From an uncultured Burkholderiales bacterium (GTDB taxonomy: Bacteria; Actinomycetota; Acidimicrobiia; IMCC26256; JACPCJ01), in the NCBI GenBank assembly GCA_964438505.1, contig CAYTKN010000013.1, forward strand, positions 7,626-71,625: a stretch of DNA of 64,000 nt. Direction: 5' to 3'. A program made the position numbers and the translations under genes. Position 1 is the first letter of the stretch, and every line of letters begins with the position of its first letter. The notes under the pieces were generated by a model that worked only from the letters and a program-made list of their open reading frames with translations, did not search any database and was not told the DNA's origin. This document shows, piece after piece, positions 3,181 to 10,618 of this stretch.

Positions 3181-3807
3181 TCAGCTCTGGTGGCCGGGGG
3201 CGTCCTCGCTCTTGCCGAGCTCCTTGTCGGGGTTGCCGCGCTCGCGGTCCTCCTGGCCTGGGGCGTCGCCGCTGTTGCCGGGCGACTCGTCGCCGCCGTC
3301 GCCACCCTCGCCGACCACCTGGATCTCGCCGGTCATGCCGAGGGTCTGGTGGTGGCGGCACACGTACGGGTAGGTGCCGGGCTCGTCGAAGGTGACGGTG
3401 AAGCTGTCGCCGCCGTCGGGCCGGACGAGCTCGGGTTCGAAGCCGAAGTCGCCGCCCCAGGTGGTGAAGCTGTCGGGGCCGCCGGTGCTGGTGACGCTGT
3501 GGCAGTGGTCGCCGACCCACTGCCAGGTGACGGTGTCCCCGACCTCGACGACGGTGGTCGACGAGACGGTCTCGGTGTCGAGGAAGAGGTTGCCGCTGAC
3601 GATCACGGTGGCGTCGCTCTCGGGAGGTGGCTCCTCGAGCTCCTGGCCGCAGTCGCCGAGCGGGTCGCCGGGGAACAGCGGGAAGAAGTGGACGGCGAGG
3701 GCGCCGCCGGGGAGGAGCAGCGCCCAAGCCGCCACGCTCGCGAGCGAGACCGTGAGCTTCCTGCGCGGAGTGCCCGTCCGCTCGCCATGCCGCCGGAGTC
3801 GCCCCAT
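3181..3807 (-). CDS. Cupredoxin (plastocyanin/amicyanin-like type-1 copper protein), probably exported
   Basis: YPYVCRHHQTLGMTGEI matches the type-1 copper pattern C-x2-H-x4-M, with an upstream His in GDHCHSV. The signal contains RR (TPRRKLTVSLASVAAWALLL). ATG 3807 has GGGAGG upstream; the track ORF extends to 3924. Confidence 0.8.
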   Translation of the reverse strand: MGRLRRHGERTGTPRRKLTVSLASVAAWALLLPGGALAVHFFPLFPGDPLGDCGQELEEPPPESDATVIVSGNLFLDTETVSSTTVVEVGDTVTWQWVGDHCHSVTSTGGPDSFTTWGGDFGFEPELVRPDGGDSFTVTFDEPGTYPYVCRHHQTLGMTGEIQVVGEGGDGGDESPGNSGDAPGQEDRERGNPDKELGKSEDAPGHQS

Positions 3808-3942
3808 GACACCCAACCTCCCCATGATGGAAAAGTATCCTCTATTCGGAGCATGAGAGCACGGCGGCACGAAGCTGTCAACCCTCGTGCATCGGGAACG
3901 CAGCGAGCGCGGCCGGTCGACCACGCGTATCGGCCGGCGCGG

Positions 3943-5436
3943 TCAGTCGAAGGGCACTGGCGGCAGGCGCGCCGGGTCGGCGAAGCGGTTCTCGACACAC
4001 TCCGGCCCGTCCTCGGAACCCGTTCCGGGCACCAGGTCGTAGGTGCGCCGCTCGATCTCGAGGTCGCCGCCGATGCCGCGCACCTTGACGTAGTCGACCG
4101 TCCAGAGGCACCCCCGTGCGAACCGCAGGAGCTGCGCCTCGTACGGCTGGTCCTGCTCGATGGTGAAGTCTTCGAGCCCGCTGGCTCCGCTGGTCCCCAC
4201 CGCGAGGCGCAGCGTCCCGTCCCGCTCCTCGCTGCTGCGCTCGTGCCAGTGGCCGTTGAGGATCAGCGGGACCTCGCCGAAGGACTCGGCGGCGAGGGCC
4301 GGGTTGTGCACGGCGAGCACGTCGGGGTCCTGGGCCCGCACCAGGGAGGCCACCTCGTCGGCGTGGTCCTCGACGATGGCGGCGGCGCGCTGCGGCGCAA
4401 GCTCGTTCGAGGCGGTGAAGGTCGGGTCGCGCACCCCCAGGACGTCGACGCCACCCACGGTGACGGTCCGGCCGTCGACGAGCTCCACGTTGTCGGCCCG
4501 GGCGACGGCGCGGGCGTTGAACACGGAGTCGTGGTTGCCGGGCACGAACAGGTAGCGGGTGTCGATCTCGGCGACCTGGTCGGCGATGCGCGCCTCGACG
4601 GGGAGGCCGAACGAGGTGAGGTCGCCGGTGTCGAGGACGGCGTGGACGTCGAAGCTCTCGGCGAGGCGCCCGACGACCTCCACCCCGAGGGGATTGGAGT
4701 GGATGTCGCTCACGTGGAGGATGCGCGTCTCGAACGCTCCGGGCCGCGGGCCGCGGCTGTCGGCGAACGCGGTGGCGTAGAGCTCGGTCACCTGCCGCCC
4801 GAGCGTCTGGATGCGCTCGCGCACCGCACCGAAGCCCTCGACGTGGCGGCGGACGGCTTCGATGACCGCCGGCGCGCGCTCGACCGCCCCGGTGTAGGTG
4901 GGCTGGGCGAAGGCCTGGGTGTCGAAGGTCCGCCAGGTGAGCCCGAGGAGGCCGCCGACGGCCACGAGCCCCCCGACGGCGGCCACGCCGACCTGCTTCC
5001 AGCGCAGGCGCGACACGAGGGCGCCGGCGAGGGCGCCGCCGGCGAGGCCCGCGAGGACCGAGCGGACGGCGAAGCTGCGAACGAGGTCTCCCACGTCCGA
5101 CTCGGCCTGCTCGAACAACTGCCGCGTGGGGCGCTCGGCGGTGAGGAGGTGTTGCAGCTCGTTGATGTCGACCGACTCCACCCTGGCGTCGACGAGGAGC
5201 GGCGTGGCGTGGGTCGAGGCGCCGACCGAGCCGAGCGGTGGCACGCCGACCTCGGTGCGTCCGTCGAGAGCGCCCTCGGCGCGCAGGGCGATCGTGCCGG
5301 GGCCGACGTCGCCTCGGGTCGGGGGGCTGAGTCCCAGCGCGAGGATCCCGCCGACGGCGCCGACCAGCGCCGTCGCGGCCACGAGGAGGAGCGCCCGCCG
5401 CCGTCCGCCGGCGGGCGCCCACCCGGGTGTCCTCAT
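3943..5436 (-). CDS. Membrane-anchored calcineurin-like metallophosphoesterase
   Basis: Phosphoesterase motifs are present: HVSDIHSN, DTGDLT, VPGNHD and NGHWH. The N-terminal half has hydrophobic segments. ATG 5436 overlaps the dprE2 stop (ATGA); the track ORF extends to 5499. Confidence 0.8.
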   Translation of the reverse strand: MRTPGWAPAGGRRRALLLVAATALVGAVGGILALGLSPPTRGDVGPGTIALRAEGALDGRTEVGVPPLGSVGASTHATPLLVDARVESVDINELQHLLTAERPTRQLFEQAESDVGDLVRSFAVRSVLAGLAGGALAGALVSRLRWKQVGVAAVGGLVAVGGLLGLTWRTFDTQAFAQPTYTGAVERAPAVIEAVRRHVEGFGAVRERIQTLGRQVTELYATAFADSRGPRPGAFETRILHVSDIHSNPLGVEVVGRLAESFDVHAVLDTGDLTSFGLPVEARIADQVAEIDTRYLFVPGNHDSVFNARAVARADNVELVDGRTVTVGGVDVLGVRDPTFTASNELAPQRAAAIVEDHADEVASLVRAQDPDVLAVHNPALAAESFGEVPLILNGHWHERSSEERDGTLRLAVGTSGASGLEDFTIEQDQPYEAQLLRFARGCLWTVDYVKVRGIGGDLEIERRTYDLVPGTGSEDGPECVENRFADPARLPPVPFD

Positions 5437-6200
5437 GCCCGTTCGGAGAGGCGCCGCCACAGCGGGCGCGGCAGCACCCGCAGGAGGGGCGCGACCCACC
5501 GCAGCGCCGGTGGGGCGTGGACGACCGACGAACCGCGGTCGAGGCCGCGGAGCACCTGGGCGGCGACGACCTCCTTGGTGGTGGCGAAGGGCGCGGGTGG
5601 CCTGCCGGCGGTCATCCGGGTGTGAACGAAGCCGGGGCGCACGGTGAGGACGTGGACGGCGCTTCGGGCGAGACGGTCGCCGAGGCCCTGCGAGAGGGCG
5701 TCGAGGCCGGCCTTGGCGGACGCGTAGACGTAGTTGTTCCGTCGGGGACGCACCGCGGCGACCGAGGAGAGCACGACGAGGTGGCCGTGCCCCTGCTCCT
5801 CGAGGTGCCGGGCGAGCGGCGTGCAGATCGAGACGGCCCCGAGGTAGTCGACGGCGGCGATCTCCAGGGCGTGGTCGAGGTTCGCCTCGGCCTCCTCCTG
5901 GTCGCCGAGGATCCCGAAGGCGAGGATCGTCACGTCGCGGTCGCCGTGCTCCTTCCAGATCCGTGCGATCAGGTCCTCGTGGGAGTCGGTGTCGGCGGCG
6001 TCGAGGTCGACGGTGTGGACCTCCGCCCCGGCGGCTTCGAGCTGCGCGGCGGCCGCGGGGCGCCGGGGGGTGTCGCGGGCGGCGAGGACCACGTCGCGGG
6101 CGCCGCGCTCGGTGACCAGCTCGGAGGCGACGGCGAGGCCGATCTCGGAGGTGCCGCCGAGCAGCAGGACGCTGCCGACGCGGCCGAGCCCGTCCCTCAC
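5433..6200 (-). CDS. dprE2: Decaprenylphospho-2'-keto-ribose reductase (DprE2-like SDR)
   Basis: This is the last 255 aa of track ORF 5433..7556. It has GGTSEIG and YVYASAKAG (YxxxK). GTG 6200 overlaps the dprE1 stop (GTGA). The longer upstream ORF part is Arg/Pro-rich off-frame noise. Confidence 0.8.
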   Translation of the reverse strand: MRDGLGRVGSVLLLGGTSEIGLAVASELVTERGARDVVLAARDTPRRPAAAAQLEAAGAEVHTVDLDAADTDSHEDLIARIWKEHGDRDVTILAFGILGDQEEAEANLDHALEIAAVDYLGAVSICTPLARHLEEQGHGHLVVLSSVAAVRPRRNNYVYASAKAGLDALSQGLGDRLARSAVHVLTVRPGFVHTRMTAGRPPAPFATTKEVVAAQVLRGLDRGSSVVHAPPALRWVAPLLRVLPRPLWRRLSERA

Positions 6201-7591
6201 GGTGCCGCCCCTCCGCCTCGGTCGCGCGCGACGCCGTCGGCGACGAGGTCGAGGCGGCGGGCGAGGTCGGTGCGGAGCCTCCGGCGCGGGTCGAGGCGGT
6301 CGCGCGTCCGGCGCCACGTCTCGACTCGGGGGTACATGGAGCGGAAGGCGTCGGGGCGGAGGCACGCGTCCTTGGCGAGGTAGACGCGGCCTCCCGCGGC
6401 GGCGACCTGCTCGTCGAAGCCGGCGAGCAGCGGACGCAGGCGGGGGTGGCCGGCGGGGAGATCGAGGGCGAGGGTCCATCCCTCGATGGGGAACGAGAGG
6501 GGTGCGGCGTCGCCGGCGCCGAAGCGCTTGAGGACGGCGAGCCCGCAGGGGACCCGCTCGCGCTCGAGCGCTTCGAGGACGGCGGCGAGCAGGCCGGTGC
6601 AGGTGGGCGGCACCGCGAGCTGGTACTGGACGAACCCGCGGGGCCCGTAGAGGGCGGGCCAGTCGGCGACGCGGTCGAGGGGGTAGAAGAACGTGTCGAG
6701 GGCGGTGAGGCGCGTGGTCGGACGCCGGGGCGCGGCGCGCCAACGCATCTCGTTGAGCATGCGGACCGATGCGCGGTTGACGAGGCCGACCGGGGAGGGC
6801 GGGACGGCTCGGCGGGTGCGGGACGCGAGGTCGAGGGGGTGGTGACGGAGCGCCTCGGGGAGCTCGTCGAGGGTGGCGTGCTCGGCGGTGGAGACGACGC
6901 CGCGGCCCAGCCGGCTGCCGGTCGCCGTGGTGTCGAGCCAGGCGACGGCGTAGCGGTCGGGGGTGGAGGCGAGCGCGTCGAGGGCGGCGTCGAGGTCGGG
7001 CGCGCGTTGCTCGGTGACCCGCATCGTGGCGGTCTCGACGGGTCGCAACGCCAGGGTGGCGCGGGTGACGACGCCGGTGAGGCCCATCCCGCCGACGGTC
7101 ACCCGGAACGTGTCGGGGTCGTGGCGCTCGTCGACGTCCCGCACGCCCTCGGGGGTGACGAGGCGGAAGCTGTCGACGTGGCGGCCGAAGCTGCCGTCGG
7201 CTGGGTGGTTCTTGCCGTGCACGTCGGCGGCGATCGCCCCGCCGACGGTGACGTGCGCGGTGCCGGGGGTGACGGGCACGAACCAGCCTTCGGGGACGAC
7301 CGCTCGGGCGAGCTCGCTGATCGACGTGCCGGCGCCGACGGCGACCCGTCCGGTGGCGGGATCGAGGGCGAGCGGACCCTTCAGGCCGGTGGTGTCGAGC
7401 ACGTGGCCGCCGGCGTTCAGCGCGGCGTCGCCGTAGCTGCGGCCGAGGCCTCGGGGGGCGACCCCCCGCGCGGCGCCGTCGTCGAGCGCGGCGGCGACGT
7501 CGCCGGTGCAGGCGACGGGGACGACGTCGCTCGCCGATCGGAGAGTCCGGCCCCATCCGCTGAGGACGCGGCGCTCGGCGGGCTCGGGCAT
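6197..7591 (-). CDS. dprE1: FAD-dependent decaprenylphosphoryl-beta-D-ribose 2'-oxidase (DprE1-like)
   Basis: 464 aa counted from ATG 7591. GWGRT, RGLGRSYGD, VTVGGAIAADVHGKNH and SFPIEGW are collinear with mycobacterial DprE1 as I recall it. Confidence 0.85.
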   Translation of the reverse strand: MPEPAERRVLSGWGRTLRSASDVVPVACTGDVAAALDDGAARGVAPRGLGRSYGDAALNAGGHVLDTTGLKGPLALDPATGRVAVGAGTSISELARAVVPEGWFVPVTPGTAHVTVGGAIAADVHGKNHPADGSFGRHVDSFRLVTPEGVRDVDERHDPDTFRVTVGGMGLTGVVTRATLALRPVETATMRVTEQRAPDLDAALDALASTPDRYAVAWLDTTATGSRLGRGVVSTAEHATLDELPEALRHHPLDLASRTRRAVPPSPVGLVNRASVRMLNEMRWRAAPRRPTTRLTALDTFFYPLDRVADWPALYGPRGFVQYQLAVPPTCTGLLAAVLEALERERVPCGLAVLKRFGAGDAAPLSFPIEGWTLALDLPAGHPRLRPLLAGFDEQVAAAGGRVYLAKDACLRPDAFRSMYPRVETWRRTRDRLDPRRRLRTDLARRLDLVADGVARDRGGGAAP

Positions 7592-7593
7592 GG

Positions 7594-8739
7594 TCAGCCG
7601 ACGCCGACGGCGGCGAGGAACACGGCCGCCCACGCGCCGCAGACGACCTGGAGGACGCGGTCGCGGAAGACGATCTCCTCGGGTTCCTCGCCGAGCCCTC
7701 GGTCGACGTCCATGGCGTAGCGGTACATGGCGACGACGAACGGGAGCACCGAGAGCTGGAACAGGACGCCGCCGTCGACGGCGTCGGCGCGTCCGAAGGC
7801 CCACAGGGCGTAGGCGACCATCGTCACCGCCGCGGAGGTGAAGCGCATCTCGCGCAGCAGCTCCAGCGAGTAGCTGCCGAGCGCCGGGCGGGAGCGGTCA
7901 GTGCCGGCGGCGACCAACTCGGCGTGACGCTTGCTGACGACGACGTAGAACGCGCCGAACGACACGACGATGAGGAACCACTCGGAGACGGCGATGCCGG
8001 TCGCCGCGGCTCCGGCGCCGGCGCGCAGCACGAACCCGGAGGCGACGGTGAGGACGTCGAGGAGCGGCTCGCGCTTGGCCCACAGGGTGTACACGGCGGT
8101 GGTGGCGACGTACGCGGCGGCGACCAGCGCGAGCGCGGTGGTGCCGACGGTCCCGGCGAGGGAGATCGCGGCGATCAGCGAGAGCACGCCCGCGCCGGTG
8201 GCGAGGCGGACGGGGACGGCGCCGGAGGCGATCGGGCGGTGCCGCTTGTGGGGGTGGAGGGCGTCCGCGTCGCGGTCGGCGACGTCGTTGAGGAGGTAGG
8301 TGCCGGCGGCGGCGAAGGTGAAGACGACGAAGGCGAGGAACGCCTCGTTGAAGATGCCGGGCCGGGCGAGGCTGCCGGCCGCGACGGGAACGGCGAAGAC
8401 GAGGAGGTTCTTGAGCCACTGGCGGGGCCGGGCGGCGACGAGGAGGCCCTTGGCCACCGATCGGAGGCTCGGTGCGGGCGCCTGCTCGGCGCCACCGGGG
8501 GTCGGGCGCGGCGGGGCGAGGACTCCGGCGACACCGGACCTGCCTGCCGTGCCTCTGGTGTCTGCCATCCCTGTGGTGTCTACCATGCCTGCGGTGTCTG
8601 CCGTGCCTGCGGTGTCTGCCGTGCCAGTGGTGCCGGCGTCCCCGGCGTTGCCTGGGTCGCGCCGGGGACGGTGGAGGCCCTGGGGAGCCGCGCGGAGACG
8701 CTCCACCGCACCGGGCCGGTGGTCCCTCGCACGCTCCAT
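7594..8739 (-). CDS. ubiA: Decaprenyl-phosphate phosphoribosyltransferase (UbiA family, Rv3806c-like); start uncertain
   Basis: YLLNDVADRDADALHPHKRHRPIASG (NDxxDxxxD) plus multiple TM helices. Candidate starts are ATG 8739, 8586 and 8568; the last gives about 325 aa, close to the usual size. The track ORF upstream of 8739 looks like noise. Confidence 0.75.
   Translation of the reverse strand: MERARDHRPGAVERLRAAPQGLHRPRRDPGNAGDAGTTGTADTAGTADTAGMVDTTGMADTRGTAGRSGVAGVLAPPRPTPGGAEQAPAPSLRSVAKGLLVAARPRQWLKNLLVFAVPVAAGSLARPGIFNEAFLAFVVFTFAAAGTYLLNDVADRDADALHPHKRHRPIASGAVPVRLATGAGVLSLIAAISLAGTVGTTALALVAAAYVATTAVYTLWAKREPLLDVLTVASGFVLRAGAGAAATGIAVSEWFLIVVSFGAFYVVVSKRHAELVAAGTDRSRPALGSYSLELLREMRFTSAAVTMVAYALWAFGRADAVDGGVLFQLSVLPFVVAMYRYAMDVDRGLGEEPEEIVFRDRVLQVVCGAWAAVFLAAVGVG
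8548..8640. repeat. 18-bp tandem repeat x5 encoding (T/M)(A/V)DT(A/T/R)G hexapeptides
   Basis: The units follow CGTGCCTGCGGTGTCTGC, and two adjacent units are identical. The array lies in the N-terminal extension or 5' region of the ubiA-like gene and contains two of its candidate ATGs. Confidence 0.8.
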
Positions 8740-8782: not shown

Positions 8783-10618
8783 GTGCTCGGTGGGCCCAAT
8801 CGCGCGATCGCACCTTCCCTCCCCCGGTCGCGGCGCTCGGTCGCCGACCGTGACCGCTCCGCGGTCGGCTCGACGGCGGCGTGCCTGGGTGGACGCCTGG
8901 GAGCGCGCCTCGGTGGACTCCTGGGCGGGCCCGCCGGCGACCGGACGGTCGCCTGGCTGCTGTTCGCCGCGTTCGTGGTGGTGCGCCTGCCGTTCCGGGC
9001 GGAGATCCTGGTCAACTGGGACGCGGTCAACTACGCCTTCGGGGTGGAGGGCTTCGATCTCCGCCACCACGAGCCGCACCCGCCCGGCTACCTGGGGTAC
9101 GTGCTGGCGGGTCGGATGTTGGCGCCGTTGGTCGGCGGGCCGAACGCGGCGTTGACGCTGCTGAGCGTGCTGGCGGGCGCGGCGGTCCCGGCGGTGCTCT
9201 ACGTGCTCGCCCGGCGGTTCGTCGCGCGCCGCGAGGCACTGGTCGTGGCGGTGCTGCTCGGCACCGCTCCGCTGCTCTGGTACTACAGCGTCGTCGCGTT
9301 GAGCTACCAGGTCGGGGCGGCGCTGGCGTTGGGGGTGGCGTGGGCGTGCCACGTGGCCCGTGTCGAGGTGTCGGAGCGCCACCTGTTGGCCGCCGCGGCG
9401 CTGCTGGCGGCGTTGGGGGCGGTCCGCCAGACGGACCTGGTGTTCCTGCTGCCGCTGTTCGGGTACGCGGCGCTGGCGCACGGGGCGGCGGCCCGTGTCC
9501 GGGCGGCGGCGGCGTTGGGCGGCCTGTGCGTCGTCTGGCTGGTGCCGTTGCTGTGGTTGTCGGGTGGCCCGGCCGCGTATGTGGACCTCTCGTCGGATCT
9601 GGCCGCGCTTGCGGGCAACCGGACGTGGCTGCTCTCGCTCGACTTGGTGGGCACGGCGCAGAACTTCCTGCTGGTCGGTGCGGGGGTGCTGCTCGGCCTC
9701 TTCGCGGCCGTCCCGCTGCTGGTGTGGACGTGGCGGCGAGGCGTGGGGCGCCGGCTGGTCGGCGCGCAGCGGCGGTTCCTGTGGCTGTGGGCGGGCCCGG
9801 CGCTGGCCGCGTTCCTGCTGGTCCACACGGGCCAGCTCGGCTACGTGCTGCTGGTGCTGCCGCCGCTGTACTTGGTGCTCGCCGTGAGGCTGGCGGCCAC
9901 CCGCGAGGGTCTGCCCGCGGGCGAGGCCCGGCCCGCGGGAGGATCCGGGCGCGAGCAGGCTCGTGGCGGTAGACGACGGCGCCTCGCCGGCGCCGCGGCG
10001 AGCCCGGCGCTGGTCGTGTCGGCGGTGGCGCTCCCGGCGGTGAACGTGGCGGGGTTCGTGGCGCTCCCGGAGGCGTCGAGCGCGTACGCGGAGGCGACGG
10101 AGCGACCGCGGGATCCCTCGCGGGCGGCGATCCTGCGGCGGATCCGCGAGTACGACGTCGGGTTGAACGACGCCTACTGGTCGGCGGTGCGTCGGGGGGT
10201 CGAGCGCTTCGACCCGGACACGACGGTGCTGCTGGCCCGACCGAGCAGCGAGGGGAGCTTCCGGCACCTGGCGTTCTACCTGCGCGACTACCGGGTCGAG
10301 GGCGTGGGCCACGACCGCGAGGGCGACCTCGGGGCGCTGTTCAACGCCCGGGACGGGTCGACCGACTACGAGGTCGACGGGCTCTCCGAGGCGGATCCGG
10401 TGTTGCGTCTGCCGGCGGGGGTGCGCCACGTCCTGACGGTGGAGGGGTTGGTGCAGCGCGACTTCGACACCGACGGGCTGGCGTCGGTGAGCTGGGGGCT
10501 GCCCGGCGGCGGTCGGATGTTGCACGTCGTGGTGCCCGAGGGCGCGACCCTGCGCTTCGACGGGGACCGCTCCGACGGATGGATCACCGTCGAGCCTTCC
10601 CGCTGGCGAGAGGCCTGA
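8783..10618 (+). CDS. Polytopic GT-C-type glycosyltransferase (ArnT/PMT-like); candidate arabinosyltransferase
   Basis: This is the real part of track ORF 8300..10618. It has many TM helices, a first-loop motif NWDAVNYAFGVEGFDLRHHEPHPPGY, and a soluble C-terminal domain of about 190 aa. It is divergent from the DPA operon. The GTG 8783 start is a guess. Confidence 0.7.
   Translation: MLGGPNRAIAPSLPRSRRSVADRDRSAVGSTAACLGGRLGARLGGLLGGPAGDRTVAWLLFAAFVVVRLPFRAEILVNWDAVNYAFGVEGFDLRHHEPHPPGYLGYVLAGRMLAPLVGGPNAALTLLSVLAGAAVPAVLYVLARRFVARREALVVAVLLGTAPLLWYYSVVALSYQVGAALALGVAWACHVARVEVSERHLLAAAALLAALGAVRQTDLVFLLPLFGYAALAHGAAARVRAAAALGGLCVVWLVPLLWLSGGPAAYVDLSSDLAALAGNRTWLLSLDLVGTAQNFLLVGAGVLLGLFAAVPLLVWTWRRGVGRRLVGAQRRFLWLWAGPALAAFLLVHTGQLGYVLLVLPPLYLVLAVRLAATREGLPAGEARPAGGSGREQARGGRRRRLAGAAASPALVVSAVALPAVNVAGFVALPEASSAYAEATERPRDPSRAAILRRIREYDVGLNDAYWSAVRRGVERFDPDTTVLLARPSSEGSFRHLAFYLRDYRVEGVGHDREGDLGALFNARDGSTDYEVDGLSEADPVLRLPAGVRHVLTVEGLVQRDFDTDGLASVSWGLPGGGRMLHVVVPEGATLRFDGDRSDGWITVEPSRWREA
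10132..10213 (+). repeat. 82-bp direct repeat, left copy (inside the GT-C gene)
   Basis: CCTGCGGCGGATCCGCGAGTACGACGTCGGGTTGAACGACGCCTACTGGTCGGCGGTGCGTCGGGGGGTCGAGCGCTTCGAC is identical to 11969-12050. Coordinates were anchored on ORF frames. Confidence 0.9.

Follow-up and report, generated by a model that had tools for sequence, protein, structure and literature searches.

Organisation of the operon

The locus considered here is a four-gene operon of the decaprenyl-phospho-arabinose (DPA) type, the last gene of which encodes a membrane metallophosphoesterase (MPE). It lies within a window of 64,000 nt, the whole stretch of DNA that was analysed, corresponding to positions 7,626-71,625 of the forward strand of contig CAYTKN010000013.1 in assembly GCA_964438505.1. 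The source genome is 3.04 Mb in length, 95.4% complete and 72% GC, and its relatives have been deposited as Acidimicrobiia metagenome-assembled genomes. In mycobacteria, the DPA pathway comprises Rv3806c, the UbiA-type synthase of decaprenyl-phospho-5-phosphoribose (DPPR); Rv3807c, a DPPR phosphatase of the PAP2 type; DprE1 (Rv3790) and DprE2 (Rv3791); and the GT-C transferases of the Emb and Aft types. The phosphatase is the least settled step of this pathway, itself the target of anti-tuberculosis DprE1 inhibitors, and two unrelated families, PAP2 and HAD, have already been linked to it.

Frame analysis using GC content at third codon positions (GC3), together with translation, resolved four consecutive genes on the minus strand. 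The ubiA-type gene (7594-8739) encodes a polyprenyl-phosphate 5-phosphoribosyltransferase, or DPPR synthase, which matches NF008978 with 321.7 bits (cut-off 207) and PF01040 with 85.2 bits, and shares 41-50% identity with its ubiA counterparts in the operons of 22 relatives. It is followed by dprE1 (6197-7591), encoding an FAD-dependent polyprenyl-phospho-ribose 2'-oxidase with a PF01565 domain, which scores 485.4 bits against NF053785, slightly below the cut-off of 500, yet aligns over the full length (7-449); homologues with 45-54% identity are present in 26 of 40 relatives. The third gene, dprE2 (5433-6200), encodes a short-chain dehydrogenase/reductase acting as 2'-keto reductase (295 bits against NF053786, cut-off 250), with the closest database homologue at 73% identity. 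The fourth (3943-5436) encodes a calcineurin-like membrane MPE of 497 aa, matching PF00149 with 43.4 bits (cut-off 21.5) and PF12850 with 35.8 bits, also above the cut-off.

The junctions were read directly. Between ubiA and dprE1 the sequence is TGAccATG, such that the dprE1 ATG stands 2 nt past the ubiA stop codon; dprE1 and dprE2 share a GTGA overlap, with dprE2 starting at GTG; and dprE2 and the MPE gene share an ATGA overlap, in which the MPE start codon lies on the dprE2 stop codon. The original prediction, that these genes form one tightly packed minus-strand unit with exactly these junctions, is thereby borne out by frames, translation and direct reading, and the profile scores agree with the UbiA-like, DprE1 and DprE2 identities it had assigned. 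The order ubiA-dprE1-dprE2 is kept in 20 of the 22 relatives’ loci read, with no adjacent dprE2 in the other two (G018 and G036). The locus is a genuine DPA-type operon that makes a lipid-linked pentofuranose donor.

An origin of the MPE gene within an inserted island was rejected, as the operon and the MPE gene have the same base composition and GC3 as the rest of the genome, and no repeats, repeat scar or terminators were found flanking the MPE gene or at its junction with dprE2. Comparison at the DNA level with four genomes of the same family, only 68-92% complete, revealed neither synteny nor the operon.

Divergent from the operon, on the plus strand, lies a gene for a GT-C-type (PMT_2-like) membrane glycosyltransferase (8783-10618). 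PF13231 matches the called protein with 24.2 bits and the open frame with 28.5 bits, and its Atlas neighbours are PMT_2, ArnT, TMEM260 and GT87 clusters. Among the relatives’ loci read, a homologue is close to the DPA operon in G011 only. No Emb-type transferase was found in the source genome, and it is plausible that this GT-C protein uses the lipid-linked pentose. The size of the divergent promoter region that it shares with ubiA is uncertain, as is the ubiA start itself: the longest reasonable frame starts at ATG 8739 and the conserved core at ~8472, but an 18-bp tandem array with a 9-bp sub-period occupies 8523-8666, within the 5' part of the ubiA frame.

A HAD-IB hydrolase gene in the operons of relatives

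In relatives from the same order, the operon takes the form ubiA-dprE1-dprE2-HAD, with the fourth gene encoding a soluble HAD-IB hydrolase of ~200-240 aa. This gene is found at the DPA locus in 23 of the 26 relatives that carry dprE1. Among 18 HAD-bearing loci read as DNA, it is the next gene after dprE2 in 16, and is 2.4 and ~11 kb away in the other two. Its start is usually within ~30 nt of the dprE2 stop, with a 4-nt overlap in 8 of 41 loci. The relatives’ proteins score 111-133 bits against PF12710 and 131-138 bits against TIGR01490 (cut-off 98.3), with TIGR01490 examples at L023:11680-12405 (G020), L013:11221-11874 (G011) and 45 other loci. Hence the Acidimicrobiia DPA operon has a HAD-IB gene as its near-constant fourth member, a firmer result that stands separately from any role proposed for the MPE.

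Across 60 further loci sampled from the class, 24 have a HAD gene, and the remaining 36 have none within 6 kb downstream of dprE2. No other phosphatase was found behind dprE2 in the HAD-less loci, the genes there encoding regulators, CoaE, GT4, epimerase, subtilase and MetH proteins. In other families of the class, the order dprE2-ubiA-dprE1 recurs with no HAD gene within 6 kb (L116, L117, L123, L128, L132, L133, L136, L147 and L154-L157), and some of these loci continue into a GAF histidine kinase/LuxR pair or CoaE. In genus g19, G018 (L105) and G036 (L107) have ubiA-dprE1 with neither dprE2 nor HAD, dprE2 being located on another contig. The dprE1 matches fall in two pieces in G036, G030 (L112) and G038 (G038:C11), which suggests frameshifts or decay.

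A phosphatase partner is to be expected for a synthase of this type. In Citrobacter youngae, ORF15 has a HAD ‘PRP’ domain fused to a UbiA-type synthase (PRP::PPPRS), and this domain removes the 5-phosphate (Kelly et al., PNAS 2024, PMC11127046). Further, NF006088, an NCBIfam profile of HAD::UbiA fusions, matches the UbiA of the window over positions 189-480 and, in its HAD half, the relatives’ HAD weakly over positions 74-168, and such HAD::UbiA fusions are found among the longer UbiA homologues. By analogy, the HAD-IB protein of the Acidimicrobiia operon is a good candidate for the DPPR 5-phosphatase.

The source genome departs from this pattern. No orthologue of the operon HAD was found in this 95%-complete genome, where the sole match is a paralogue on contig C36 with 24-34% identity, of a HAD-IB type also carried by most relatives, including those with the operon HAD. 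With the orthologue absent and the MPE gene translationally coupled behind dprE2, the MPE therefore sits in the phosphatase slot of the operon.

PAP2 genes of the source genome

The original prediction held that no PAP2 gene is present, and that the MPE might hence stand in for an enzyme like Rv3807c. This is correct for the operon, whose fourth gene is the MPE rather than a PAP2-fold protein with the KxxxxxxRP and SRx5Hx3D motifs, and correct for an Rv3807c orthologue, but not for the genome, which holds two PAP2 genes. One is a fusion of 477 aa on contig C1 (C1:170957-172390; L001:511-1944), joining a PF09335 polyprenyl-phosphate transporter-like domain (DedA/UptA) to a PAP2 domain, and is probably a module for carrier-lipid recycling; in the same-family genomes G002, G003 and G004, the best PAP2 match is likewise held by open frames of 476-523 aa. 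The other is a PAP2 protein of 232 aa on contig C27.

Rv3807c-type proteins were defined by synteny, as the PAP2 encoded directly upstream of ubiA in six Mycobacteriales-like genomes. The tally behind this definition, as well as the class-level dprE2 tally, includes the unpublished genomes G227, G287 and G397, from which no locus was taken and on which none of the conclusions depends. The Rv3807c-type proteins match the source genome weakly, at E 9e-6 or worse, and the best match of the 232-aa protein is a different mycobacterial PAP2 (E 1e-15 to 1e-17), with the ubiA-adjacent PAP2 at 1e-6 to 1e-8. The whole-genome search that had been suggested as a check thus returned no Rv3807c orthologue in the 95%-complete genome by reciprocal best hit. 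Nor was a PAP2 gene found near dprE1 in any of the 26 dprE1-bearing relatives. Hence the enzyme displaced in this lineage is the HAD-family phosphatase, not a PAP2, and the part of the prediction that cast PAP2 as the displaced enzyme is superseded by the occupancy of the slot in the relatives. Rv3807c itself has been assigned to a different structural family than the HAD PRP (PMC11127046).

The metallophosphoesterase and its family

An AlphaFold2 model of the MPE (mean pLDDT, the predicted local distance difference test score, 84.7) comprises a first transmembrane (TM) helix at about 11-36, a small beta domain at 40-89, a long helix with TM2 (123-143) at its end, TM3 at about 146-169, a helical linker that is less certain, the compact MPE domain at 236-465, and a disordered C-terminal tail. 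The hydrophobic segments of TM1 and TM3 are placed at 16-34 and 149-167. The metal-binding motifs, D244/H246, G271/D272, G300-D303 (including N301 and H302), H377 and G395-H398 (including H396 and H398), show no variation among 40 homologues, and correspond to the DxH, GD, GNH(D/E), H and GHxH set of the superfamily on its alpha/beta sandwich. Hence the protein looks fit for catalysis and tethered to the membrane. Pfam recovered no second domain in it, the C-terminal substrate-binding domain of UshA being absent.

Its fold does not point to a substrate. A search of the Protein Data Bank by sequence gave no match, and Foldseek recovered only the general MPE fold, with probability 1.00 to many MPEs but 11-20% identity to solved structures; these included GpdQ, Rv0805, SbcD/Mre11, purple acid phosphatases, Vps29, Escherichia coli 5'-nucleotidase (UshA) and LpxH. 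As these neighbours are generic, no substrate can be inferred from the fold.

Across 40 family members, the N-terminus carries a net charge of +2.5 and the five-residue loop between TM2 and TM3 a charge of +2, whereas the beta domain and the segment that follows TM3 are both acidic. Under the positive-inside rule, this distribution predicts that the MPE domain is extracytoplasmic. The relatives’ operon HAD, by contrast, has no TM segment and no signal peptide, and hence is cytoplasmic. DprE2 requires NADH. The earlier description of a TM-anchored calcineurin-like phosphoesterase therefore holds for the protein’s identity, through PF00149 and the three hydrophobic helices, but a simple swap for a cytoplasmic HAD is at odds with a catalytic domain predicted to face outwards.

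The MPE belongs to a large family of membrane MPEs of ~470 aa in Acidimicrobiia and other Actinomycetota, with an actinobacterial cluster of similar proteins numbering 5638 members. The source genome has a second copy at C7:93261-94616 (L005:9223-10692), 55% identical to that of the operon and syntenic with a copy in the same-family genome G001 (G001:C10, L006); the shared block has two uncharacterised membrane proteins and an SPW-repeat protein upstream of the MPE, and a PAP2 gene lies ~1 kb downstream of the MPE in the G001 block, but not in the source genome. In trees, the operon MPE joins six proteins known from Logan assemblies only, in a subclade with 100% support that is sister to the clade containing this syntenic housekeeping paralogue. 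Residue 378, beside the metal ligand H377, is N throughout the operon MPE subclade and D in all 33 other aligned members. The pair C443 and C480, not conserved in the wider family, is invariant in the subclade, and would suit an extracytoplasmic disulfide. Separately, in three unrelated loci (L208:46-789, L041:13003-13584 and L050:5538-5945), MPE-family genes are adjoined by a HAD-IB-like gene with 29-40% identity to that of the operon.

A possible replacement of the pathway phosphatase

The UbiA-type synthase would produce a lipid-linked 5-phosphopentose, from which the 5-phosphate must come off, and in the relatives the small soluble HAD-IB protein most likely removes it, by analogy with the Citrobacter PRP (PMC11127046). 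The source genome no longer has this HAD gene; the slot is taken instead by a membrane MPE paralogue that is translationally coupled to dprE2. We tentatively favour the reading that the MPE took over the 5-phosphatase step, making it a candidate functional replacement of the HAD enzyme. Its two-metal centre would cleave the phosphomonoester at C5 of this lipid-linked sugar, the same chemistry as that of the MPE-fold 5'-nucleotidases, which act on ribose-5'-phosphate esters. Given the predicted outward catalytic domain, dephosphorylation would be at the outer face of the membrane. DprE1 and DprE2 would epimerise C2' to yield the arabinofuranosyl donor, which the GT-C transferase would use outside the membrane. 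That the MPE acts as the 5-phosphatase in this outward-facing form, with the 5-phosphorylated lipid-linked pentose exported before its dephosphorylation, is the more doubtful version of the proposal, and we regard it as rather unlikely.

Several observations weigh against this reading, chief among them the distribution of the family. The original prediction had looked to co-occurrence of the MPE with dprE1 and dprE2 in other genomes, and this was not found: with up to 10 kb of flank, ubiA, dprE1 and dprE2 are absent from the vicinity of all 168 other loci of this MPE family, namely 8 from the genome search, 80 in GTDB species (up to 10 kb on each side) and 80 on metagenome contigs (49 of these with at least 800 nt upstream). 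Conversely, this MPE is at none of the 82 other DPA loci. The linkage is therefore a single occurrence, seen only in this genome among all loci read. Of 40 relatives, 5 have an MPE homologue and 26 have dprE1, and in the genomes with both (G011, G022 and G040) the two are on different contigs. The idea that MPE-bearing genomes are those without the HAD is ruled out, as G011 and G022 carry the operon HAD plus an unlinked MPE, which implies that the family’s general job is something else. At class level, four of the nine genomes with an MPE homologue give no dprE2 match (G043, G053, G065 and G206). Furthermore, the HAD and the MPE are both missing from three dprE1-bearing genomes, G031 (98% complete), G018 and G036, and hence the operon does not have to supply this step.

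Two weaker observations tend the same way. Judged by the lengths of the longest contigs, no shared contig was apparent between the six closest MPE homologues and the best 120 of 3324 DprE2 matches, although this comparison is indirect; and UbiA::MPE fusions were not found, the fusion partners of UbiA being GT2, DUF218 and HAD. The structures closest to the MPE are for the most part diesterases or nucleases (GpdQ, Rv0805 and SbcD). The beta and catalytic domains are predicted to be outside the cytoplasm, meaning the MPE would not be a like-for-like substitute for a cytoplasmic HAD. This objection is not fatal, because the site of the late DPA steps is debated, with the spheroplast and probe data cited in PMC11127046 pointing to an extracytoplasmic DprE1. 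Finally, the case was selected because the neighbouring gene was a phosphoesterase, and so the coincidence of its position counts for less.

Many of these points are expected if the MPE is instead an ecto-phosphoesterase of the envelope, whose housekeeping function, common to the family, has nothing to do with DPA, and of which one paralogue came to lie behind dprE2 after loss of the HAD and is merely co-transcribed. Removal of the 5-phosphate would then fall to a phosphatase that is unlinked or promiscuous, perhaps the 232-aa PAP2, the HAD-IB paralogue on C36 or some further enzyme, as has to be the case in DPA genomes without the operon HAD. We consider such a passenger gene nearly as likely as a replacement. 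It accounts for a family of this size (the 5638-member cluster) that is unlinked to DPA genes, is found without dprE2, is absent from most dprE1 genomes and coexists with the HAD; for genomes that run ubiA and dprE1 with neither enzyme, and the 36 of 60 class-level loci lacking a nearby HAD; and for the mismatch between an outward MPE and a cytoplasmic HAD. Rv3807c is also reportedly dispensable in mycobacteria. Against this, the chance landing of a phosphohydrolase in the phosphatase slot, with a clean ATGA coupling, would be a notable coincidence, in a 95%-complete genome from which the usual HAD is absent, and the copy that landed is from a separate conserved subclade, not the syntenic housekeeping copy.

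It is also conceivable, although improbable, that the MPE is a true member of the operon with a different role at the outer face, acting on another phosphorylated intermediate or product of the same glycan pathway: it might trim a phosphate or phosphodiester on an arabinosylated envelope polymer, or process the released lipid carrier on behalf of the neighbouring GT-C enzyme. The coupling to dprE2 is consistent with this, as are a catalytic domain predicted to share the extracytoplasmic side with the GT-C active site, the invariant C443/C480 pair, and nearest folds that include the phosphodiesterases GpdQ and Rv0805 and the lipid pyrophosphatase LpxH. However, by established chemistry, a GT-C enzyme that draws on a polyprenyl-monophosphate sugar sets free polyprenyl phosphate, for which no phosphatase is needed; no such partner was seen at any other DPA locus read; and the missing 5-phosphatase would be left unexplained.

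The case for replacement therefore retains its genetic core, a fourth, coupled gene in the phosphatase slot of a genome without HAD or Rv3807c orthologues, while losing the support sought from co-occurrence, meeting an unhelpful predicted topology, and having the HAD as the enzyme displaced. That the MPE stands in for the pathway phosphatase is reasonable but unproven.

Comparison with known systems and significance

The locus encodes clear homologues of the synthase, the oxidase and the reductase of the mycobacterial DPA pathway, follows the same logic, in which the 5-phosphate has to be taken off a lipid-linked 5-phosphoribose, and has an adjoining GT-C gene. It differs in being a single operon, rather than the two loci of M. 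tuberculosis, in having an MPE as the fourth gene, and in the lack of a PAP2 partner, an Rv3807c orthologue and an Emb-type transferase.

The ORF15 PRP::PPPRS system of C. youngae, one of the three-component extracytoplasmic pentofuranose systems, has the same enzyme logic, in which a dedicated 5-phosphatase works alongside a UbiA-type synthase and a GT-C enzyme (PMC11127046), with the fused PRP mirrored by the separate HAD-IB gene in the relatives’ operons. The source genome is unlike it in being without this HAD, and its MPE is of an unrelated fold, integral to the membrane and predicted to face outwards, whereas PRP is cytoplasmic.

With UshA, GpdQ, Rv0805 and LpxH, the catalytic domain shares the dimetal alpha/beta sandwich fold and its motifs. 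UshA removes a 5'-phosphate from ribose outside the cytoplasm, which is the chemistry proposed for the MPE; lacking the C-terminal substrate-binding domain, however, the MPE is not a member of a UshA-type family. The N-terminal module of three TM helices and a beta domain is unique to this MPE family among these enzymes. In the literature library searched, no paper mentions DprE2 together with a metallophosphoesterase.

The locus is a natural experiment, in which an MPE gene is found in the operon slot of the lineage’s usual HAD phosphatase gene. Should the MPE do the job, it would add a third, structurally unrelated enzyme family to those serving this step. It would also bear on the side of the membrane at which dephosphorylation, and perhaps epimerisation, takes place, in support of the disputed view that late DPA steps can be extracytoplasmic. 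If the MPE is not the phosphatase, then the locus illustrates that unlinked enzymes can take care of this step.

The downstream neighbour

Downstream of the MPE gene, on the same strand, lies a gene for a secreted cupredoxin (3181-3924), which matches PF00127 with 37.3 bits. No cupredoxin gene was found downstream of the operon in the relatives, and no terminator-like site was found between the two genes in the window. The cupredoxin gene may be co-transcribed with the MPE gene, while its product is probably outside the pathway.

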